NCBI GenBank assembly: GCA_034226945.1
Contig: CP120461.1
Location: 248,001 to 312,000, forward strand
Length of the DNA: 64,000 nucleotides
Source of the DNA: Picochlorum sp. SENEW3
Taxonomy: Eukaryota
Direction of reading: 5' to 3'
This document shows positions 5,810 through 64,000 of the stretch, one piece after another. Positions within the stretch are counted from its first letter, which is position 1. Every line of letters begins with the position of its first letter. The translations under genes were made by a program, and so were the position numbers. The notes under the pieces are model-generated. The model had not been told where the DNA came from, ran no database searches, and was given only the letters and a program-made list of their open reading frames with translations.

Positions 5810-7406
5810 ATGAAACGTATGAATTCCTTGCGGCAATTCTTCAGAATAAAACCACCAACCTGGGTGGCTTTCAACCTTGTGTTGACCGTGGCAACACGCT
5901 GTCACGCCAGCACGGATATTGCACAGTTTGGAGGTACTGTGTTTTTGGGTGGAGATTGGGACTGGTTACCTGGTATAGATGGAGAGGGGGTGAAGAGTAG
6001 GTGCGAGCAGGGCTTGGATAGATTGGCAAGCCACGGCGTGTCCCGCGTGCAGTTTGCAGTGACATTCTTCTGGGACGATATTGGCCCGTTAAATCCTCCT
6101 GAGGGATTTGATTTTTCGTGTAAAAACGCGGATTTGGGCTCATACTACTGCTACAATAGATTTAATGCTACAAAAGTATCACACTGGTGTTTCCACAGAC
6201 CCCCATTTGATCAGATGCCTCTAGATGCAAGGTCTGTGGGGTGCGCCGAGGTGACGAATGATGAGATTGATAGTTTCAAGTATCATGTGGGTTCTTGCAT
6301 ACAAAAGGCTGTGGAGATGGGATTTGAAGATCTGGTATGTGTGTGTCTTGCTCTCTTGCTTCTTCTTTCCTCTTTTCTTCTTGTCCATGCATTATACTGT
6401 GCGTGTTCAGGAAGTGAATGTTCGAGTAGACGATGGAAAGTCTTTGGAAGGCTGGAGGAACACCTTGCTGTTTTCTCCAACCCAAGAATATGGCCAGTTT
6501 TCATATGAGACTGCCATCTTGAACACCATTGCAGACATATTGGTGGAATCTGTACAGAGCTCAGATGATGTCCAGCTAGCTTTTACCCTCCAAGGAGAAA
6601 TGGGTGCGACAATATTCTTCTTCGCGGATGAATGGATGGATGTGATGGATAGAATACGAGATGGAATAGATTCTCAGAGATCAGAGGATGCCCCTCCAGT
6701 GAAGATTGGGATCCATCAAAACAATGCAAAGCTGTGTGGGTGTTTCCAAGTAGGTTTTGAGGGACCTCATGATGAGTATATCGCCATGCTCGATGATATG
6801 GACACGTCTCTGATGGATTTCGAGTCAATACGACAGCTCTATGCCAGTGCTGATTATCTGGGTATTTCAGCATATATTCCCATGAAGTCTGCCACGTTTG
6901 ATCTCTGCGACTTTGAAGGTCTTCTCGAGCGAACTGACATCGAGCTATCCTACTTTAATCTATCACTCAAGGAGATTACGGGGCCCTTTGACACCCGTTT
7001 ACACTACAGTGAGTTTGGTGTGGGAGGAGGTTCTTCAAACTCTGGCAAAACACCAGCAGTCACGGCGACTCAAGCAGCCCGTTATCCATACTATGGGATT
7101 CATGGAAAACATACGTGTGAGAATGATCCATTCCGCATGTGCGAGTGCGATGCGATGGGAATATGCCCCACTGAAAATCCTGTCCGAGAGTACAGACGCT
7201 CCTACTTTGACCAATTCTCCACCTATCTGTCCCAGGGTGGCTGCCGATATCACAACATCGAGGTGGTCTATGTGTGGGGTACTGGATCATGGGATGTCCT
7301 CGGGGTGTATCCTCCAGATCGTTCATGGGAAGACCCAGTCGTTATTGAAACCATACGTCAGCACAATCTGAACGCAACGAGGCAAACTGTGTCTCCGCTC
7401 GAATGA
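5810..7406 (+). CDS. Secreted TIM-barrel glycoside-hydrolase-like protein (clan GH-A-like); exons 5810-6334, 6411-7406
   Basis: Signal-peptide-like N-terminus. Intron GTATGT...TTCAG (6335-6410) joins the two ORFs in phase 0. Candidate catalytic glutamates in LQGEMG and YSEFGVGGG, plus DYLGISAY. Confidence 0.65.
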
Positions 7407-53244: not shown

Positions 53245-53494
53245 GGCGCCCTTGAAGGAACGACTGATACCCTCTCTATCTTCTCCCCCAATCACGCTCC
53301 TGTTGCACGCATTAATACCCTACTGTAATTAAAATTCATCTCTGACCATTAAGTACCCTACTGTTGGCATGATCAACGGCAGGACACCGAAGGTGAAAAC
53401 AATGCATGGCATGTCTTTACTCTGAACCAAAACACCTCTATGATAAAAATACGAGCAATGTACGTCTCCTTTCTACTCATACAAATCTGCAAAT

Positions 53495-53591
53495 TTATCT
53501 TAATGCATCTATGAATCATCAGAGAAAGGTAAGCATGTACTTTTTCTTTTCCAAATCATCCAGGCTCTCCCTGGATACGCCCCATCGGCAC
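53495..53591 (-). pseudogene. Decayed 3' remnant of the beta-flower-like gene
   Basis: Homologous to 60234-60330 (CRWG...SLDDLEKKKYMLTFL), with substitutions and a premature stop. Confidence 0.7.
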
Positions 53592-54116
53592 CGCAAGGTC
53601 AAGGCCTCGAACAGACATGTCTGATGAATTCCGTGCCAGCCACAACCCTGAACGCGTGCTCATTGACCAAGGCACAGAACAAGATTGCTCTGACAGCATG
53701 CGGGACAAGCTTCATGATCTTCAGCTCCCCTTTTTATGAGCCTGGTCTCATCAAATGACACACTCGATAAACTGGCGACACGCTGGCATTCCTACTATAT
53801 GTGCCACTTGTCATCACCCTGGCGGAAAGCTCTAGCAAAGCATGCCACAGAGTGGAGACCATGGAAGCCCTTTGTCTTCCATATTCCAAGTAAAAGCAAT
53901 CAGCTTCTTGATGACACCATCAGTGAATTGCTTGGCGATAATACCAGTTGCAAGGGCATTGCTTGCAATCTTTGCAAAGAAAGATGCCGCTGGGGAATGA
54001 TCCCACCAGGGGAGGTATGAATGTATATAGCTCATAGGCAGTATAAAGTAATATCTCAATCTCCTTTTAATGAATCCCGGGACGCAGTGAATGTATCGAA
54101 AGTGAACTACACTAGC

Positions 54117-54403
54117 TCAATTACACAGATACAACAAACCATGCAAAATGCCTCCAACTGCCGCTGAGCCACTTTGTGATTCTCGTTTCTCAAAGCACTG
54201 GCTCTGACCATCATCGCAGGTACAGTCACAATCATTCATGAATTTCTTCTTATTGAGCTTGAGAGCGCAGTTTGTGCTCGCATAGAACAGCCATCAGGGC
54301 AATACACTGTATTGCCATTCAACACATGGGCACTCTGATCTGAAAACATTGTGCAGCACAGAGCATGATGATCGCGACAACAAACCGGTAGCGTTTGCAT
54401 CAT
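54117..54403 (-). pseudogene. Frameshifted small Cys-rich secreted-protein gene, copy A
   Basis: Pieces in different frames: FVVAIIMLC (signal-like), LNGNTVYCPDG, NDCDCTCDDGQSQCFEKRE. Homologous to copy B. Confidence 0.5.
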
Positions 54404-54875
54404 CTTTTATTGCATTGAATGTCGTCGTCATTCGTAAGATCTCGACAATACTTTTACTCAAAAGAAAGGGGACACGTGGAAAATGGAGTTCTTCAATAGT
54501 TACACTGTAAAAAATATTCATCGGTTTGGTTGTCGCTCATTATCGCACTCAAAACAGTACATAAATAGATTATGAAATATCTGAAGAATCATTATAATTG
54601 TAGACTACGTTTAGTTCTGTTCGTACTCATAGAACACTGATCATTTATACATCAGGCTTGGAAGTGAGCAAATTTGCCTATCAAAGGCTGACTAACTACA
54701 TCCCAGAAGATCTTCTGCTCTGGGGTACAAATCAATGGTAAAAAAATCTGCATGCATATGAATCACTAGGTACACATATTCTTGTTTGCCTCAGATGGTC
54801 TGAATTTGAACCGGATCTTGCACTATTATTGCCTCTCATTCATTCATCTATGACCCATCAGGTCACTAGGATAAA

Positions 54876-56273
54876 TCATTTCGCCTCGGCCTTTAGCCCC
54901 CCACATATCAGCCCCTCGAGCACCTCAATAATGTTATCCACAGTCGGGCGCTCATCTGGATCCAGCAACCAACACCGATGCAGCAATTCAGCTAGTGCTG
55001 CAGGCATGTCCTCTGGAATAGGCAATCGCTCTCCCTCGCAGATGGCATAGAGGATCTGGGCAGGCCTAGCGTCGCCCCATGCTAGCTCTCCAGCCCAAAC
55101 CTCCCAGATCAACACGCCCAAGGAAAAGATGTCGGACGCTTTGCTGGTGTAGCCATCGCTCATGATCTCTGGGGAAGCATACGCAATGGTGCTCATGCCT
55201 TCTGTCTTTGCCATGTGGGGTGCATTGATGGATACACGCCCAAAATCAATCAAGCTAGCTGTCATATTCGAAGCCCTTGGGGTTTGATCTTCAGCATCAT
55301 ATACATAATGAAGCATTGCATTGTTGCTGGACAGATCCCGATGAATTATATGGTTCTCATGCATGTACTGAATACCATGGGCAATATTCAGGGCAATGTT
55401 TTTGAGCCGGAGGAGTTTGGCATCTTTGTCTGTATCCTGGAAATCACCTCGTTCCAGAGCATCGCCCAGTGTGCCTCCATTGCAAAACTCCTGTATAAGA
55501 AGAAACTTGAGATTTTTGGGATCTTCTTGCCGTTCTGCTTCTAGTAATCGAAATGTCTGTTCTACTGCTTCCCTCGAATCTGCCAAGTAGTCCAAGGATA
55601 GAATCTCCGCGGCACCATCCTCCGGAGCTGCCACTGACGCTAGATCGACTGTCTTTATTGAATCTTTGTCAATGCACAAGCTGCACTTTGCAATCCTCTG
55701 AGACCCAGACAATGTGCTGCCTTGACGTCTATACACGCGAACCCTGAAGGTTTGGGCTACATTTTCATGGTTCATTCCCATGCCCGCCTGGCTTTCCAAT
55801 TTGACGTTTTTCAACAATTTCTCGCTATCCCCATTCAAAGAGATCAATTTGACGGCTACATCCCCATAGAGATCGTGGTGCCCATGAAAGACCCTTCCAT
55901 ATGAGCCAGACCCAACCATTTTCCCAATAATCAACTCACTCGGTGCAAGGCCACTCGTATAAATATCTCCCATCATTTGAGGTCCCTGGAGTATTTTCGA
56001 CAGATAGTTGGGGTTGCTAGATCGAGCAGCAGGAGCTACTACAACTGAATCTTGGACTCCAGCGTCTTCAGAGTCATAATCTGTGCCACCGTTCTCAAAA
56101 GGAGAGGCAAATATCGATGAAGAATCATGCTCCATTTCTATTGCATCTGTCAGTAGACTGTTGCTGCGCACAGCGACAGGGTGCTTCGATAACACACTGC
56201 AGCTTACGCAGCCGTTGCTCCCAGAAGCAAACCCAAGTTTGTCGATGCCGTTAGCCAATGTCAGTGTATTCAT
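54876..56273 (-). CDS. TKL/MAP3K-like Ser/Thr protein kinase, copy 1
   Basis: GSGSYG, VAVK, HRDLSSNN, DFG, YASPE, SDIFSLG and CW..DPDERP. Long subdomain IV-V insert, intronless. Confidence 0.92.
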   Translation of the reverse strand: MNTLTLANGIDKLGFASGSNGCVSCSVLSKHPVAVRSNSLLTDAIEMEHDSSSIFASPFENGGTDYDSEDAGVQDSVVVAPAARSSNPNYLSKILQGPQMMGDIYTSGLAPSELIIGKMVGSGSYGRVFHGHHDLYGDVAVKLISLNGDSEKLLKNVKLESQAGMGMNHENVAQTFRVRVYRRQGSTLSGSQRIAKCSLCIDKDSIKTVDLASVAAPEDGAAEILSLDYLADSREAVEQTFRLLEAERQEDPKNLKFLLIQEFCNGGTLGDALERGDFQDTDKDAKLLRLKNIALNIAHGIQYMHENHIIHRDLSSNNAMLHYVYDAEDQTPRASNMTASLIDFGRVSINAPHMAKTEGMSTIAYASPEIMSDGYTSKASDIFSLGVLIWEVWAGELAWGDARPAQILYAICEGERLPIPEDMPAALAELLHRCWLLDPDERPTVDNIIEVLEGLICGGLKAEAK

Positions 56274-57056
56274 TCGTTCGTTTATACTTATATTCGTCAC
56301 TAATTTATACAATTATTATATGTATTTATCAATTCCAGGAGGACTCACGCTGACGCATGACTACCGCGGTACTTTCTGGAATGGATGGTTTGGCGAGAGA
56401 GTCCTGTGAAATGTTTCATTCATGGGAACCACCTGTCGACGAGGCGCGCTTGTACCAAATCTTTGGACGAGATATCTCCTTTGGATCCATAGAGATTTCC
56501 CTGTGAAAATCCCTATGGGGCTATGGCCTACCGCGGGGTTGCCATATCGGCATATAATCCACACAATTGGCATGATAATCGACATATTTCGGTTAGGATG
56601 AGATGATTCCATCCTAACAATTCATCTGTACTGTACTCATGTTTGCCATTGGGTTGACAGAAAGAAGTGTGTCGTTACTTGTATTAACACTCGCGAATAC
56701 GCGTAGCAAGGAAAAGGAGTGTATGTTGCCATTGTTGGATCTAGAAATCATAGGAATGCGACCATCTGCCTAGGTGATGCCAATGTCCAAGATGAGCATG
56801 GTCATGGTTTGAATTTCGATCAGTGACTGCATTGGATGAAGATTCCCGTATACCCACTGGAAACACGTGTATCTTTATGAATCGGGCTCAGATTTGGCCA
56901 GCGGTGGATTATATGGTATCCCCTGGTGCCAGAATATCTTTGGCTCGGAAAAAAATCCCAAGCGTGGTGGTGTAGGGATACCGCACCGCCATCATCATGA
57001 CTCATGGAAATACGAGCAAACGTACGTCTCCTTTCCACTGATAGAAATTTTCAACT

Positions 57057-57150
57057 TTATCTGAATGCATCCGTGAAGCAGTAGAGAAAAGCAAACATGT
57101 ACATTTTCTTTTCCAAATCATCCAAGCTCCCTTGGATATTGCCCCATCGG
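57057..57150 (-). pseudogene. Truncated copy of the beta-flower-like gene (last ~30 codons intact)
   Basis: RWGNIQGSLDDLEKKMYMFAFLYCFTDAFR* is identical to the C-terminus at 60234-60326. The upstream repeats are missing. Confidence 0.8.
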
Positions 57151-57299
57151 GCACCGCAAGGTTCAAGGCCTCGATGATTCTGTAGTAGTAGGTATATATG
57201 TGTATAGCTTATAGGCAATGACAAGAAACGTCTCGATCCCACTCGAGTAAATCCCGACACACACGGAGTCTAATACTTGAGTGAATCGCGTGACGTCAA

Positions 57300-57589
57300 T
57301 TGCATCAAGCCCACAAACAATGCAAAAGCACTTCCTTCAACTGCCGCTGAGCAACTTTATCTTTCGTTTCTCAGAGCACTGGCTCTGGACGTCATCAAAG
57401 TTGCATACCCAGTCATTCAGCAATTCTTGTTTCCTTGTTAAACCTGAGAGCGCTGTTTCTACTCGGATAGAATAGCCATCAGGGCAATACATTGCATTGC
57501 CATTCAACGTGTAGGCAGTCCCATCTGAAGACGGGTGTGCCACGCATAGCATGATGGCAGCGATAACAAACAAGTAGCACTCTCATCAT
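57300..57589 (-). pseudogene. Frameshifted small Cys-rich secreted-protein gene, copy B
   Basis: ATGATG at 57589 is out of frame with FVIAAIMLCVAH...LNGNAMYCPDG...NDWVCNFDDVQSQCSEKRK. Confidence 0.5.
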
Positions 57590-58059
57590 TTTTTGTAATA
57601 CTGCCTGCTCTTGTTGCATGAAATCTTGATATTACTTCGTGTATGGCGACGAGTGGAATATACTGAACTATAGAATGTTACATTGTACAAAAAAAAATGC
57701 CTTGGTTTGGTTGATGCGCAGAATCACACCGAAAGTAGTACAATGATTGCTTGATTATGGAACATGTAAAATTTCATCTTGACGTTACGCTTGGTTCGTT
57801 TTGTAGTGATGGATGGGCGATATTTTATCAATGAAGCTTTGAACTAAACAAAAGGCTGGGTAACCAGATAGCCTCTCTTCGCCCCAGAGGAAGATAAATA
57901 AACAGTGAAAAAAATCTGCATGCATATAAATCGACAGGTATTAAAGTTCTTGTTTGCATGCCTCCGATGGTCTGAATTTTAATCCGATCTTGCAGTATTC
58001 TTGTCTCTCATTCATTCATACATGAACCATCAGGTCACTAGAATAGTTAACTATTTTCA

Positions 58060-59454
58060 TCATTTCACCTCAGCCTCTAGGCCCCCAGATATCAGCCCCT
58101 CGAGCACCTCAATAATGTTATCCACAGTCGGGCGCTCATCTGGATCCAGCAACCAACACCGATGCAGCAATTCAGCTAGTGCTGCAGGCATGTCCTCTGG
58201 AATAGGCAACCGCTTCCCCCCGCAGATGGCATAGAGGATCTGGGCAGGCCTAGCATCGCCCCATGCTCGCTCTCCTGTCCAAACCTCCCAGAGCAGCACG
58301 CCCAAGGAAAAGATGTCGGACGCTTTGCTGGCGTGGCCATCTGTCATGAGCTCTGGGGAAGTATACGCAATGGTGCTCATGCCTTCTGTCTTTGCCATGT
58401 GGGGTGCGTTGATGGATGCACGCCCAAAATCAATCAGCTTGGCTATCATATTCGAGGCCCTTGGACTTTGATCTTCAGAATCATGTAAATAATGAAGCAT
58501 TGCATTGTTGCTGGACAGATCCCGATGAATTATATGGTTCTCATGCATGTACTGAATACCATGGGCAACATTCAGGGCAATGTTTTCGAGCCGGAGGAGT
58601 TTGGCATCTTTGTCTGTATCCTGGAAATCACCTCGTTCCAGAGCATCGCCCAGTGTGCCTCCATTGCAAAACTCCTGTATAAGAAGAAACTTGAGATTTT
58701 TGGGATCCTCTTGCCGTTCTGCTTCTAGTAATCGAAATGTCTGTTCTACTGCTTCCCTCGAATCTGCCAAGTAGTCCAAGGATAGAATCTCCGCGGCACC
58801 ATCCTCCGGAGCTGCCACTGACGCTAGATCGACTGTCTTTATTGAATCTTTGTCAATGCACAAGCTGCACTTTGCAATCCTCTGAGACCCAGACAATGTG
58901 CTGCCTTGACGTCTATACACGCGAACCCTGAAGGTTTGGGCTACATTCTCATGGTTCATTCCCATGCCCGCCTGAATTTCCAGCTTTACATCGTTCAACG
59001 ATTTCTGGCTATCCCCATTCAAAGAGATCAATTTGACGGCTACATCCCCATAGAGATCGTGGTGCCCATGAAAGACCCTTCCATATGAGCCAGACCCAAC
59101 CATTTTCCCAATAATCAACTCACTCGGTGCAAGGCCACTCGCATGAATGTCTCCCATCATTTCAGATCCCTCTAGTACTTTTGACAAATAATTGAGGCTG
59201 CTGGATCGAGCAGCAGGAGTTGCCACAACTGGCTCATGGACTCCAGCGTCGTCGGAGTCATAATCTGTGCCACAATTCTCAAAAGGAGAGATAAATATAG
59301 ATGAAGAATCATGCTCCATTTCTATTGCATCTGTCAGTAGACTGTTGCAGCGCACAGCGACAGGGTGCTTCGATGACACACTGCTTACGCTGGCGTTGCT
59401 CCCAGAAGCAAACCCACCTTGGTCGATGCCCTTTGCCAATTTCAATTGAGGCAT
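58060..59454 (-). CDS. TKL/MAP3K-like Ser/Thr protein kinase, copy 2
   Basis: Same motifs as copy 1; tandem paralogue. Confidence 0.92.
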   Translation of the reverse strand: MPQLKLAKGIDQGGFASGSNASVSSVSSKHPVAVRCNSLLTDAIEMEHDSSSIFISPFENCGTDYDSDDAGVHEPVVATPAARSSSLNYLSKVLEGSEMMGDIHASGLAPSELIIGKMVGSGSYGRVFHGHHDLYGDVAVKLISLNGDSQKSLNDVKLEIQAGMGMNHENVAQTFRVRVYRRQGSTLSGSQRIAKCSLCIDKDSIKTVDLASVAAPEDGAAEILSLDYLADSREAVEQTFRLLEAERQEDPKNLKFLLIQEFCNGGTLGDALERGDFQDTDKDAKLLRLENIALNVAHGIQYMHENHIIHRDLSSNNAMLHYLHDSEDQSPRASNMIAKLIDFGRASINAPHMAKTEGMSTIAYTSPELMTDGHASKASDIFSLGVLLWEVWTGERAWGDARPAQILYAICGGKRLPIPEDMPAALAELLHRCWLLDPDERPTVDNIIEVLEGLISGGLEAEVK

Positions 59455-60233
59455 AGATCAAAAGTTATATTCGTCACTAATTTATACAATTATTATATGT
59501 ATTTATCAATTCCAGGAGGTTTCACGCTGACGCATGACTACCGCGGTACTTTCTGGAATGGATGGTTTGGCGAGAGAGTCCTGTGAAATGTTTCATTCAT
59601 GGGAACCACCTGTCGACGAGGCGCGCTTGTACCAAATCTTTGGACGAGATATCTCCTTTGGATCCATAGAGATTTCCCTGTGAAAATCCCTATGGGGCTA
59701 TGGCCTACCGCGGGGTTGCCATATCGGCATATAATCCACACAATTGGCATGATAATCGACATATTTCGGTTAGGATGAGATGATTCCATCCTAACAATTC
59801 ATCTGTACTGTACTCATGTTTGCCATTGGGTTGACAGAAAGAAGTGTGTCGTTACTTGTATTAACACTCGCGAATACGCGTAGCAAGGAAAAGGAGTGTA
59901 TGTTGCCATTGTTGGATCTAGAAATCATAGGAATGCGACCATCTGCCTAGGTGATGCCAATGTCCAAGATGAGCATGGTCATGGTTTGAATTTCGATCAG
60001 TGACTGCATTGGATGAAGATTCCCGTATACCCACTGGAAACACGTGTATCTTTATGAATCGGGCTCAGATTTGGCCAGCGGTGGATTATATGGTATCCCC
60101 TGGTGCCAGAATATCTTTGGCTCGGAAAAAAATCCCAAGCGTGGTGGTGTCGGGATACCGCACCGCCATCATCATGACTCATGGAAATACGAGCAAACGT
60201 ACGTCTCCTTTCCACTGATAGAAATTTTCAACT

Positions 60234-60548
60234 TTATCTGAATGCATCCGTGAAGCAGTAGAGAAAAGCAAACATGTACATTTTCTTTTCCAAATCATCC
60301 AAGCTCCCCTGGATATTGCCCCATCGGCACCCTTGAACATACACATCACCGCCATCATCCAACTCACCAACGCGGCATCCATCAACAAACATATCTCCAG
60401 AACTAGTTACATAGCCAACACGGGAGCCCTCAACGTACAAGTCTTCATTGGAAATGTACCCCACTCTGCTACCTCCCTTGTACACATCACCGCAACTGAA
60501 ATATCCTTCTCTGCACCCAGCAATATAAATGTCCCCTCCAAAATCCAT
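60234..60548 (-). CDS. 5-repeat beta-flower-like protein (104 aa), intronless
   Basis: Five 15-16 aa repeats GD[IVLM][YF]xxG[CS]RxGx[IVLF] followed by a hydrophobic C-terminal helix. Confidence 0.7.
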   Translation of the reverse strand: MDFGGDIYIAGCREGYFSCGDVYKGGSRVGYISNEDLYVEGSRVGYVTSSGDMFVDGCRVGELDDGGDVYVQGCRWGNIQGSLDDLEKKMYMFAFLYCFTDAFR

Positions 60549-60840
60549 ACATCCTACACAAGTATAGTACACACCATCAGTATCTTATTTGCTCTGCACT
60601 GCTATATGATACAGAAGCGGTGCTGCATCGTAGACTGGAAGAATGACATACCAAGCCTGGAACCACTTTGGTACATATCCATCACAGGGCCCTTGATACA
60701 TAGATTGGCAATACAGGGTATTGTCCTATGTAATTAAATCTATGGTCTTTAAGACGAGACGTTGTCAATCAATATTGAATACTCCTTCTTGACGCCAGGT
60801 TTTGTGCAGGCACAACACAAGACAAACAACCAGGTGTATC

Positions 60841-60869
60841 GCCCCATGGCCATGGGGCCCCATGGGGCC
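60841..60869. repeat. Nested CCATGG palindromes (18, 16 and 14 bp)
   Basis: GCCCCATGGCCATGGGGCCCCATGGGGCC read directly. Confidence 0.8.
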
Positions 60870-61019
60870 AGAGTTCTGTAATAAAAAAGAAAGGATCTCG
60901 AGAGATCTCGATTGCGCCAGAATTCTCTTCAGATCAGTGCCCATCGATATCATCCTTGTACCTGAATTAATTCAAATAATAGCGATCCAACGACTGAGAA
61001 TAATACTACCACGACGACC

Positions 61020-61657
61020 ATGGCAACATCACCATTGCACCAAACCAAGTGTTTTTTTTCTCAGGGTTGTCAAAAACTCGCAAACCCTTGGACGATGACG
61101 CATCCCAGCATTCCATCTTTACGATATACTGTAGCACCATGGCAAAAGAAGATGGTCTCGATGTCGGCACTGTCTTCCGGAAGAAGCAGAAGCAAGAGAA
61201 CATGCCGTGGCTCTTCTCCACCACAAGCCTCATCATCGGTACGATGCAATTTTGCATTCATACATTTCTCTATAGACATCTGATTTCAACATGTTGTCAT
61301 GGCATACAGGGTGGTGAAAGTAAAGGCAGTGGCCGTATTCGCCAGGTGAACGAGGAGGAGCTCGAGGTTGAAATTGTCAACAGAGAAAAGCCCTTGATTA
61401 TTGATTTCTTCGCGACATGGTGCGGGCCATGCGTCATGCTTCAAAAGGAATTGGAGCAGGTTGCAGAGACATTGGGAGACAGTGTGCAGATATTAAAGAT
61501 TGACTGTGATGAGAATGAAGGCATTAGTAGTGCACTGCAGATTCAAGGTCTCCCGACCCTTATATTTGTGGGCATGGATGCTGACAAACCAGCTCTTCGG
61601 ACGGAAGGGTTGCTTCCAGCACAATCAATCATTGATATTATTCAGAATGAAATGTAG
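61020..61657 (+). CDS. TRXz: Plastid thioredoxin z (CITRX); exons 61020-61238, 61310-61657
   Basis: Transit-peptide exon, then PLIIDFFATWCGPC...GLPTL..D..K.ALRTEGL. Phase-0 intron. Confidence 0.85.
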
Positions 61658-61719
61658 TAATAATAATAAAACGAGCTGATGTGGTTGAATAATATGCAAA
61701 CTATATTTTGTTTCTTCTT

Positions 61720-62565
61720 CTAGTGTGATTTTGCCCTGGTCTCTATACATTGTACATTCAGCATCCATGGAAGGAGTGTCGATGTCACAGCATGATCGAA
61801 TATCCAGAAGGCGAGAAGCATCAATAGACACGCCTGCGATATTCTACATGCCCCCTGTGCATCACGTGAAGCAGACAGGGTACACATCACCAGCCCTCGT
61901 ACAATCTGCCAAAATCTATACAGTCCAAAGCTGAACGGTACACTTGACGTCATTTGGTTCCTATTAAAGATATTCGTTTCCATGACAATCTGAATGCTAA
62001 ATACTATCAGGTATCCTGCCAGGGATTGGAGGAATACCTGCACCTCTCCTAGAATAAAGACAAGGTACAGCCCTACCAGGATTGGGAGCAGAAACGTGAG
62101 CGAGAATGCAAATGGTAGATATCGAAGAAACCCAGAAGGGTACTTTTTCAACGACGTGCCGTCCATGCGTTGTTGAAACGCTCCCGGGTATCGTGGAGCC
62201 TGTGGAGCATACACCTGCTCTCCATATGCCTTTGCAAGCTGAAGAAAGACAAAGCATGACAGCCCAAATCCCGCGTCAGCGATTAAAAACAGGGTACCAA
62301 TGGGAATATTAATATTTCTTAGTAGTACTACAGTCTGGTTCTCCTTTCCGTACGTATCAGACAAGTGGGTGACACATGGGTACACTGCTGCAAATACTGC
62401 AGTCGTATACCACAGACTCGCAATCACCCATCCATACTCATTATTTGCGATACTATTCATTTTATGTAATACTTTATCGACAGAGGTGTCATATGGCTTG
62501 TATAGATTCGCCCATACTGATGGTAAAAAACCTCCTGTCGGTGGTGGCGTTGCTGACGTGGACAT
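61720..62565 (-). CDS. Multi-pass membrane protein of unknown function
   Basis: 281-aa ORF with about 7 hydrophobic segments and no motif I can name with confidence. Confidence 0.7.
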   Translation of the reverse strand: MSTSATPPPTGGFLPSVWANLYKPYDTSVDKVLHKMNSIANNEYGWVIASLWYTTAVFAAVYPCVTHLSDTYGKENQTVVLLRNINIPIGTLFLIADAGFGLSCFVFLQLAKAYGEQVYAPQAPRYPGAFQQRMDGTSLKKYPSGFLRYLPFAFSLTFLLPILVGLYLVFILGEVQVFLQSLAGYLIVFSIQIVMETNIFNRNQMTSSVPFSFGLYRFWQIVRGLVMCTLSASRDAQGACRISQACLLMLLAFWIFDHAVTSTLLPWMLNVQCIETRAKSH

Positions 62566-62656
62566 TCACTCTTCCACGTGGATGGGACAATATGTATGCG
62601 TGCCCATCCCATCCGACACAAACATTTTTATTTTATACATTTCAATAACAACACTA

Positions 62657-63400
62657 ATGGTATTTGTAACTGCGACAATGAACAACGGATTGCTCCCATA
62701 CTGGGGACTGTCGACTGTGTGCAGCAGTCTGGGTTTTCTCCAACCTGTGTACACGATATCGTATGGGTACGGATTATCCATGCTTGCGCAGTCTGCCTAT
62801 AGATTTTGGAATAAGGACTCTATCGATACAATTGGAAAGATACATCTGGGGCTGGTTGGACTGTATGGGGTTCGAATGGTCTCCTTTTTATTGTGGAGGT
62901 CTAGCTTGAAGAGTTACAAAGCATACCAGGAAAGGGATTCTACAAAAAAGAGGAGAGAGAAGATACACAAGACGTCACAGGTTGTAGGAATGGTGTTGGG
63001 GTGTTCAGCGCTCTATGTGGGTATGTTTGTGCCAGCATTCTTCAATTCTATGGAAAAGGATAGCATGATGTCAGGAGACATACCCAACGCAATGTCTATT
63101 GTGGGTCTGGGTGTGGCCACGATTGGCCTTGCATTAGAAGGTGGATATGATGTGATAAATCAGCTGGATTTTGAGAGGAATTTTGTCCAATCTCCATCCA
63201 CCCGGAGGCCATATAGGGTCAATTATAATTACATTGGTGAGGCCCTCTTCTGGATTGGAGGGTTCCTAGGAGCAACACGAACGTTCACAGGACCCTTGAA
63301 GTTCCTGGGAGCACTCCCAGCGGTAGCAGGAATAGCGGCTGGTATGTTTTCTGAGGGGGTAGGACGGTACAAGAGAAGACGGGCAAAGAAAGAACAATAA
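62657..63400 (+). CDS. DUF1295/steroid 5-alpha-reductase-like membrane protein, divergent
   Basis: ISYGYGLSM, YGVRMVSFLLWR and NYIGEALFWIG. Confidence 0.7.
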   Translation: MVFVTATMNNGLLPYWGLSTVCSSLGFLQPVYTISYGYGLSMLAQSAYRFWNKDSIDTIGKIHLGLVGLYGVRMVSFLLWRSSLKSYKAYQERDSTKKRREKIHKTSQVVGMVLGCSALYVGMFVPAFFNSMEKDSMMSGDIPNAMSIVGLGVATIGLALEGGYDVINQLDFERNFVQSPSTRRPYRVNYNYIGEALFWIGGFLGATRTFTGPLKFLGALPAVAGIAAGMFSEGVGRYKRRRAKKEQ

Positions 63401-63511
63401 CCCAATGAGAATTACAAATTCATTCATCCATCACGATGCATGTATACACAATATATATTTAGTATGTCGAACAGAAAAACATTCAAGAAAGGAAAAACAC
63501 AAAAAAGATGG

Positions 63512-64000
63512 TCATGGATTGGTGAATGACGCTGTCATGCTACCACCAGGACCGCGCCGTGCCACTCTCCCACTTCGTCCTATAGAGTTATTTTGCATTC
63601 CCTTTGTAATATAAGACATCCCGACTTCGTAGAGAATTGGGAGTACCGAAACAAAAATAATTCCAAGCACAACAAGAGAAAAGTTGCTCTGCACTGCAGG
63701 GATATTTCCAAACACATATCCAGCTCCAACACACAAGACAGTCCACAAGGCAGCCCCAAACACATTGTAAAAGGCAAATGTTTGATACGCCATGGATCCA
63801 ACACCGGCCACGAATGGAGCGAATGTCCTAACAATAGGAACAAATCGAGCCAGCACGATTGTTTTCCCTCCATATTTTTCGTAAAATGACTCTGTCTTTT
63901 TCACATATTCTGCCTTGACCAGCTTGGACTCCATCGCTCTCTTCCCCAAAAACTTTCCTATCGAGTAGTTCACGGCATCGCCGAGAGTCGCGGCTGTCAT
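63512..64000 (-). CDS. DedA-family membrane protein (3' part; 5' end outside the window)
   Basis: AATLGDAVNYSIG, FYEKYGGKTIVLARFVPIVRTFAPFVAG and FAFYNVFGAALW. Confidence 0.92.
   Translation of the reverse strand: MTAATLGDAVNYSIGKFLGKRAMESKLVKAEYVKKTESFYEKYGGKTIVLARFVPIVRTFAPFVAGVGSMAYQTFAFYNVFGAALWTVLCVGAGYVFGNIPAVQSNFSLVVLGIIFVSVLPILYEVGMSYITKGMQNNSIGRSGRVARRGPGGSMTASFTNP

Follow-up and report, generated by a model that had tools for sequence, protein, structure and literature searches.

The β-flower fold was named in 2023 (Durairaj et al., Nature 2023, PMC10584680) and is held in Pfam as the families PF21784, PF21785 and PF21786 of clan CL0395. According to that paper, the hairpin loops carry a semi-conserved [DNEQ]xxG motif, a network of aromatic residues packs the barrel on the helix, and the entry of the helix is circularly permuted compared with Tubby, the fold having been compared there with 1ZXU. 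Among the literature matches listed for the fold name and the Pfam accessions, the three accessions appeared only in the 2023 paper, its preprint and an integron preprint. The only β-flower protein with an experimentally linked phenotype among these matches belongs to Cernunnos, an anti-phage defence, described in the matching text as a 4-fold β-flower (PF21784) cassette. Here, we analysed a stretch of 64,000 nucleotides (nt) of Picochlorum sp. SENEW3 (GenBank assembly GCA_034226945.1, contig CP120461.1, positions 248,001 to 312,000; hereafter the window) and, in it, a small minus-strand gene that appears to belong to the same fold family, with PF21785 (Bflower_2) as the nearest family. Tandem short hairpins followed by a C-terminal hydrophobic helix are the feature in common. 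We regard as probable, taken as a whole, the explanation that this is a two-exon nuclear gene of an alga whose product is a six-hairpin β-flower serving as a non-enzymatic binding module; the part of it that concerns gene and fold is held with good confidence.

The minus-strand open reading frame (ORF) at 60234..60572 encodes 112 amino acids (aa); the Met codon at 60548 opens a 104-aa product, and the stop codon lies at 60234-60236. The translation of the 112-aa ORF contains five units of 15-16 residues, followed by a short acidic linker and a hydrophobic tail up to the stop, and the units correspond to residues 5-19, 20-34, 35-50, 51-66 and 67-82 of the 104-aa product. When the sequence was scored against itself with BLOSUM62, the value at a lag of 16 was 46, whereas shuffled sequences gave a mean of -15.0 (standard deviation 10.4, maximum 32), and 0 of 2000 shuffles equalled the observed score even when the best lag from 8 to 39 was taken. 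The five tandem repeats and the hydrophobic tail that an earlier note on this DNA had described at 60234-60548 were thus found there, unit for unit, on the minus strand. As the extent of the gene, however, this segment is probably incomplete: it would be the second exon alone, with a sixth unit beginning in an upstream exon at 60652-60682 (Table 1).

The sequence argues with good confidence for a two-exon, six-unit gene with a 98-nt GT..AG intron rather than for an intronless one. The same frame holds a stop 17 codons ahead of the ATG at 60682, and the ten codons after this ATG resemble the first half of a hairpin unit. Joining 60682-60652 to 60553-60234 (31 + 320 = 351 nt) would give a protein of 116 aa with nothing N-terminal of the first hairpin unit, an isoelectric point of 4.28, 10 Lys and Arg against 18 Asp and Glu, and 6 Cys. 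Residues 1-116 of this spliced protein aligned end to end with residues 86-200 of a homologue, P0003, with 66 identities in 115 positions (57.4%). When scored with a profile built on 95 relatives of bacterial type, the spliced protein reached 105.6 bits, exon 2 alone 94.6 bits and the unspliced ORF 95.6 bits; exon 1 adds 11 bits to the family-profile score, and the match then begins at residue 1. Furthermore, two relatives from metagenomes, L001 and L002, yield an uninterrupted six-unit protein (121 aa) only when a similar first exon is joined across an 88-nt phase-1 GT..AG intron.

The earlier note had instead read the gene as a single exon from Met 60548, encoding 104 aa with five hairpins and a helix, so that the upstream ATG and the GT..AG pair would be coincidental. 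An ATG does open the frame at 60548, and the nearest Pfam family carries the name '5-fold'. The 11-aa peptide of exon 1, of which 8 of 11 residues match residues 86-96 of P0003, gave by itself an E-value of 1.5, which is not significant. However, the 104-aa product would start in the middle of a unit, while most of the tabulated bacterial relatives have six units and P0003 has the N-terminal unit contiguously. Together with the gain of exon 1 against the family profile, its end-to-end alignment with P0003 and the comparable intron of L001 and L002, this makes the single exon unlikely. In place of five hairpins and ten strands, six units were counted with exon 1 and 12 strands were found in the model of P0003 described below; for the window, the replacement of '5-fold' by six holds only if the splice is real.

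Some observations weigh against the proposed splice. The intron of L001 lies about 6 codons downstream of that of the window, and its position is thus not simply conserved. No splice joint was found in the 4 RNA/DNA runs examined out of 22 listed, which were searched as contig sets whose uncovered parts carry no information. A single contig came from a library declared as RNA (X20, oligo-dT); it is 151 nt long, covers 60522-60672 and crosses the intron unspliced, as a single exon would predict. This contig had a depth of 2.9 and was about 93% alike, with 10 differences and a 2-nt deletion at 60569, and may be DNA, pre-mRNA or a genuine unspliced message. Runs X10 and X14, guessed to be RNA, resemble DNA. 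The expression for which the earlier note had suggested a look at RNA-seq data accordingly found no evidence in the four runs, nor did splicing.

The fold was examined on P0003 with AlphaFold2 using a 106-sequence alignment. The block-mean predicted local distance difference test (pLDDT) over residues 81-200 of the model was 94-98, and DSSP assigned 12 strands in six hairpins (residues 85-175) and a helix at residues 182-195, the latter with a pLDDT of 94-97 per 10-residue block. All 12 strands and the helix map by alignment onto the spliced window protein. A β-flower is a shallow, closed barrel with 8, 10 or 12 short antiparallel strands arranged as hairpin 'petals'; hairpins of this kind, with 12 strands, were seen in P0003 and carried to the window by alignment. 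A C-terminal helix, which such a barrel would enclose, was likewise seen in the P0003 model and would correspond to residues 98-111 of the window protein.

When the P0003 model was compared with 48,161 chains by VIA-align, the first chain was 2q4m_A, At5g01750 (Z 6.0, root-mean-square deviation (rmsd) 3.5, 95 residues, model range 91-194). A designed 12-stranded barrel followed (Z 5.7), as did Tubby, 1i7e_A (Z 5.2, model range 91-192); KdgM, OEP21 and NanC, porins with 12 strands, were found at Z 4.4-5.2. The alignments with At5g01750 and Tubby run through the C-terminal helix, to model residues 194 and 192, respectively. Because the neighbours are consistently 12-stranded barrels and two helix-in-barrel proteins aligned including the helix, the model fits a six-hairpin β-flower. 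We infer that the window protein shares the P0003 fold; it most likely forms a small closed barrel of 12 strands with its own helix as the plug, a six-hairpin β-flower of the Tubby-like clan. Tubby (1i7e) and the LURP-one-related At5g01750 (2q4m) are likewise 12-stranded barrels round a central hydrophobic helix and superposed with an rmsd of 3.5-3.6 over 95 residues. The likeness is structural only, however, at an identity of 10-12%, and the strands and loops of the window-type protein are much shorter.

The model of P0003 begins with 85 residues before the flower domain, in which AlphaFold2 placed a long hydrophobic helix at residues 22-54 with a block pLDDT of about 76-83. Since the frame is broken by a stop at the corresponding position of the window, this N-terminal stretch of P0003 is probably a translated 5' untranslated region, although residues 22-54 may act as a membrane anchor in its species.

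Searching 1.84 billion representative proteins with phmmer gave 111 proteins at E ≤ 1e-3, of which 32 reached E ≤ 1e-10 and 2 reached E ≤ 1e-30, and a word-indexed protein search gave one match, the 76-aa fragment P0002 with 93% identity. Most relatives examined have six units of the type G-S-R-x-G-E-I-E-S-D-G-D-I-Y and then a hydrophobic F-rich tail, and many of the bacterial ones, to judge from their sequences, have N-terminal signal-like hydrophobic segments. Seven of the 98 relatives scanned passed the gathering cut-off of PF21785 (38 bits), namely P0007, P0008, P0015, P0029, P0063, P0098 and P0111. The first three of these matched the window query in phmmer with E-values of 2.0e-22, 1.5e-19 and 1.7e-16, and scored 45.3, 52.8 and 44.1 bits against PF21785, respectively. 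In the alignment of 106 members (A1), 39 matched PF21785 and 30 matched Bactofilin (PF04519) at E ≤ 1e-3. Furthermore, when the profile of the algal members (A2) was compared by hhalign with a profile of the seven proteins passing the PF21785 cut-off, the probability was 99.8% with an E-value of 2.2e-28 over 95 columns including the helix. Because of these matches to proteins that pass the cut-off, the window protein is, by sequence comparison, homologous to bona fide PF21785 members, though below the curated threshold. The earlier proposal of a β-flower-like fold with a C-terminal helix, akin to Tubby and scramblase, is consequently upheld by the P0003 model, its At5g01750 and Tubby neighbours and this profile match.

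Several results count against the assignment and were weighed with it. The confident model is that of a 57%-identical homologue and not of the window protein, for whose 104-aa product a single-sequence AlphaFold2 run was poor (mean pLDDT 48.9). The closure of the barrel and the burial of the helix were read from the DSSP string and the aligning chains rather than from coordinates. The Z values of 5-6 are middling, in the range that VIA-align itself calls common, and Foldseek of the P0003 model against the PDB gave nothing at E ≤ 1e-3; a similar lack of PDB matches was reported for the β-flower fold in the matching text of the 2023 paper (PMC10584680). In Pfam, the 112-aa ORF had no match to PF21784, PF21785 or PF21786 even at E ≤ 10, and so does not reach the PF21785 cut-off, while P0003 matched no family at E ≤ 1e-3. 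The sole, weak match of the window ORF was to Bactofilin (14.4 bits, E 0.047), below the cut-off of 27.9 bits. PF21785 is named '5-fold' by Pfam, whereas six units were counted here, and among the literature matches listed for β-flower, Bflower and the Pfam accessions, the matching text held nothing on algal members or on the function of the subfamily. Of the two checks that the earlier note had suggested for the fold, structure prediction with Foldseek thus gave the 12 strands and the helix in the homologue and no PDB match, and the search with the β-flower profiles failed on the ORF itself and succeeded through its clear homology to proteins that pass.

A rival reading of the same repeats is that the window protein is a bactofilin-like right-handed β-helix that polymerises into filaments. 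Besides the weak window match and the 30 members of A1 that match PF04519, 5 of the 98 scanned relatives pass the Bactofilin cut-off, the top feature match in the ESM Atlas is a 'polymer-forming cytoskeletal' cluster (0.92), and the IMG name of some relatives is 'cytoskeletal protein CcmA, bactofilin family'. The repeat length and a pattern rich in Gly, Val and Asp are indeed alike in the two families, which leads to the sub-threshold score. However, the P0003 model has two antiparallel strands per 16-residue unit and a terminal helix, a hairpin meander, whereas a bactofilin has three strands per turn. The best 50 rows of the VIA-align comparison held barrels and neither a bactofilin nor a solenoid, bactofilin chains were absent from the PDB matches of the family profile at E ≤ 10, and P0004 and P0050, which pass the bactofilin cut-off, nevertheless have the flower-type C-terminal hydrophobic tail. 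The filament reading is therefore extremely improbable, and the cross-match looks like repeat mimicry at the sequence level. A MORN-like solenoid, which the earlier note had named as the fold that would overturn its own, was not found either: the window ORF had no Pfam match to the MORN repeat at E ≤ 10. At the same threshold, it had no match to the Tubby C-terminal or LURP-one families of clan CL0395. Two PDB matches of the family profile, the designed propeller Scone-E (2.9e-5) and a phage baseplate spike protein (1.1e-4), were taken as repeat noise.

Within the β-flower family, the gene differs from the bacterial members in being eukaryotic, in its proposed spliceosomal intron and in having no N-terminal signal-like segment. 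The strand-2 consensus is G-Y in the window protein and G-E-I-E in bacteria, and the tail motif is specific to the algal clade. The [DNEQ]xxG loop motif could be read in 3 of the 6 window units, whereas the bacterial relatives have E-S-D-G in nearly every unit. Separately, 11-14 stretches of two giant proteins, P0013 (3054 aa) and P0016 (1538 aa, from a Spiroplasma endosymbiont), matched the 104-aa query; very long proteins of repeat type therefore hold the hairpin unit as well.

Conservation is seen at the Gly of both turns, at one aromatic residue, one Arg and one Asp per unit, and in the aromatic-rich helix. All of these appear structural, and the sequences show no residue that would suggest catalysis. 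On that ground, a non-enzymatic binding module is suggested as the mode of action, by analogy and only tentatively. A rigid, very stable barrel would present two loop faces, one with an Arg from each unit and the other with an Asp from each unit, and these faces would meet a ligand or a membrane surface, as in Tubby-like domains. Tubby-like domains carry a basic lipid-binding patch, whereas the window protein is acidic, which speaks against its binding anionic lipids in the way of Tubby; binding of a cation or of a basic partner would be no less probable.

A more specific possibility is that an ancestor of several small-genome green algae took up a bacterial gene long ago, and that the gene was domesticated and is now a fast-evolving one-gene antiviral or stress sensor. 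Domestication would have meant that introns were gained, the signal peptide was lost and the protein became cytosolic. The anti-phage phenotype of Cernunnos, as given in the matching text, the small number of algal-type clusters, the broken copy in L003 (below) and the position at the edge of a recently duplicating kinase array would all fit. Cernunnos shares the fold clan of the window protein, but its β-flower is of another Pfam family, the 4-fold one. Against a role in defence, PADLOC gave no match for the window protein and 6 relatives, and the bacterial relatives lie mainly between housekeeping genes. This reading as a whole is highly doubtful. NCBIfam likewise gave nothing above cut-off for the window protein and the same 6 relatives.

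The distribution of the family was examined next to the question of horizontal transfer, which the earlier note had raised. A profile scan with a 6-row alignment, taking one genome per prokaryotic species, gave 111 stretches that encode relatives. Eighty of these prokaryotic stretches (L015-L094) were kept for neighbourhood counts and belong mostly to Bacteroidota and Myxococcota, with a few from Acidobacteriota, Gemmatimonadota and Proteobacteria. The genes beside or near the relatives encode DAHP_synth_1 (KDO8P-synthase-type) at 36 of the 80 loci, DHFR and an exonuclease at 31 each, GpsA at 29, Fe-ADH at 22 and GldD at 12. This setting looks like conserved core or housekeeping synteny in Bacteroidota and not like a functional operon, a mobile island or a defence island.

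A quick maximum-likelihood tree was built from 157 rows, namely the spliced window protein, the spliced L001 protein, 74 database proteins and 81 ORFs from bacterial loci. Eleven proteins longer than 400 aa, P0011 with its intron read-through N-terminus, and rows that did not span profile positions from ≤50 to ≥135 were excluded; P0005 failed this span filter and was returned by hand as an algal row. In this unrooted tree of a short alignment, the window protein, P0003, P0005, L001 and P0107 form one side of a branch with a support of 97 in the Shimodaira-Hasegawa-like approximate likelihood ratio test (SH-aLRT). P0107 appears algal and shows an apparent intron read-through. The G+C content (GC) of the coding sequence is 0.456 (0.462 at third codon positions), and that of the window is 0.464. 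Since the algal proteins form one clade, introns occur in at least two lineages and coding sequence and window agree in GC, these sequence data make recent transfer or contamination unlikely. A single old transfer from bacteria into a green-algal lineage would fit the data, within the limits of an unrooted tree and a short alignment. Taken together, the gene belongs to a distinct green-algal clade, intron-bearing and with six units, of a mostly bacterial β-flower family; what is new is the member and the clade, and the fold family is a known one.

The other algal loci were identified by their neighbours. L001 and L002 (GC 0.59 and 0.61) both adjoin a CLC channel gene, and L001 also an AP-1 mu gene whose closest named relatives are from Apatococcus (74%) and Trebouxia (73%). 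L003 is an 84-kb algal-type contig (GC 0.44) with TLC-domain, Vps62 and Rubisco-LSMT-type genes as neighbours. Its copy of the flower gene at 5950-6340 is interrupted by an in-frame stop within a unit and changes frame close to both of its ends. A pseudogene or a misassembly is the probable explanation; the gene-caller products P0027 and P0366 are fragments of this copy. No synteny was seen: 6 proteins from neighbouring genes of the window, and the window DNA from 58000 to 64000, gave no match to the loci L001-L014.

Two annotation traps accompany the family, intron read-through N-termini on algal members and, in IMG, bactofilin labels on bacterial ones. In L001 at 1288-1745, and in the same gene of L002, the true first exon (1288-1339) lies upstream in another frame and is followed by the 88-nt intron. 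The first residues of the P0011 cluster (121 aa, 6 members, some in NCBI) are intron read-through, and prokaryote-style gene calling has mis-set the N-terminus of this algal cluster. Several flower-type proteins (P0006, P0370-P0372) are labelled 'cytoskeletal protein CcmA (bactofilin family)' by IMG, which is likely a systematic mis-annotation but may be a sign of a distant repeat relationship. The gene offers a eukaryotic, genetically tractable setting for asking what a β-flower mini-barrel does, and is a candidate for an ancient bacterium-to-alga gene transfer. Apart from its clade, the setting of the fold and these traps, it is an ordinary small gene of a known family.

Table 1 Coordinates in the window of the proposed flower gene, its parts and its truncated copies.
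Feature	Position	Strand	Description
Exon 1 (proposed)	60652..60682	-	Starts with ATG, then 10 codons and base 1 of a Gly codon; in hairpin unit 1, encodes strand 1 and the beginning of strand 2
Intron (proposed)	60554..60651	-	98 nt, GTATGT...TGTGTAG, phase 1, GC 0.42; sites taken directly from the sequence
Exon 2	60234..60553	-	Remainder of unit 1, units 2-6, linker, C-terminal hydrophobic helix, stop 60234-60236
Hairpin units 2-6 (the five of the earlier note)	60303..60536	-	Each maps onto two strands of the homologue model
Unit 2	60492-60536	-	
Unit 3	60447-60491	-	
Unit 4	60399-60446	-	
Unit 5	60351-60398	-	
Unit 6	60303-60350	-	
C-terminal hydrophobic helix (predicted)	60252..60293	-	Spliced residues 98-111; aligns with helix 182-195 of the P0003 model
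Gene part inside the duplication	60185..60331		Last 98 coding bases (32 codons and stop) and 3' flank; similarity ends at 60331
Truncated relic 1	57057..57155	-	Last 32 codons and stop; 97% protein identity (tblastn); no hairpin units upstream
Truncated relic 2	53495..53590	-	Same tail, 66% identity, two in-frame stops (tblastn)

Judged by its genes, the window is nuclear DNA of a plastid-bearing green alga. Its genes include those for condensin Cnd1, a Sec16-domain WD40 protein, RelA/SpoT, thioredoxin, tyrosine kinase-like (TKL)-type kinases and a PDS-like oxidase, whose closest named relatives are from Chlorella ohadii (61%) and Micractinium (61-65%). Next to the flower gene, a 3.18-kb unit with a TKL-type kinase gene is repeated in tandem, 57190-60331 being 87.2% identical overall to 54013-57155; the kinase ORFs lie at 58060-59454 and 54876-56312 on the minus strand. 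Identity is 97-99% along the part from 59400 to 60331 (97.3% to 56219-57155), and such a stretch within 87% units suggests recent gene conversion or staged duplication. A third, partial copy at 53447-53592 is 85.1% identical to 60185-60331. The repeat ends at 60331, within the last hairpin unit of the flower gene, and the older units therefore hold only its last 32 codons and stop. The earlier description of a gene that anchors a duplicated locus was overstated; only the last 98 coding bases and the 3' flank lie inside the kinase-gene repeat, and the flower gene, rather than anchoring the duplication, was a bystander cut by it.

This position raises the question of whether the gene itself is a decaying or unexpressed relic at the edge of the tandem duplication. 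Two truncated tails in the window, one of them with stops, the lack of expression evidence in the runs examined, the in-frame stop and frame change of the L003 copy, and the recognition of only about 5 algal-type clusters among the matches would be consistent with such a relic. However, the 116 codons are intact, and all six units retain the Gly, Arg, Asp and aromatic positions of the family. The 93%-identical fragment P0002 and intact relatives of 50-60% identity also speak for a maintained gene, and a relic is very unlikely. Furthermore, 6 differences in the coding sequence were listed for a variant contig from run X10; 5 of them lie at the third base of a codon and are, each by itself, synonymous, a bias that likewise suggests constraint on the gene.

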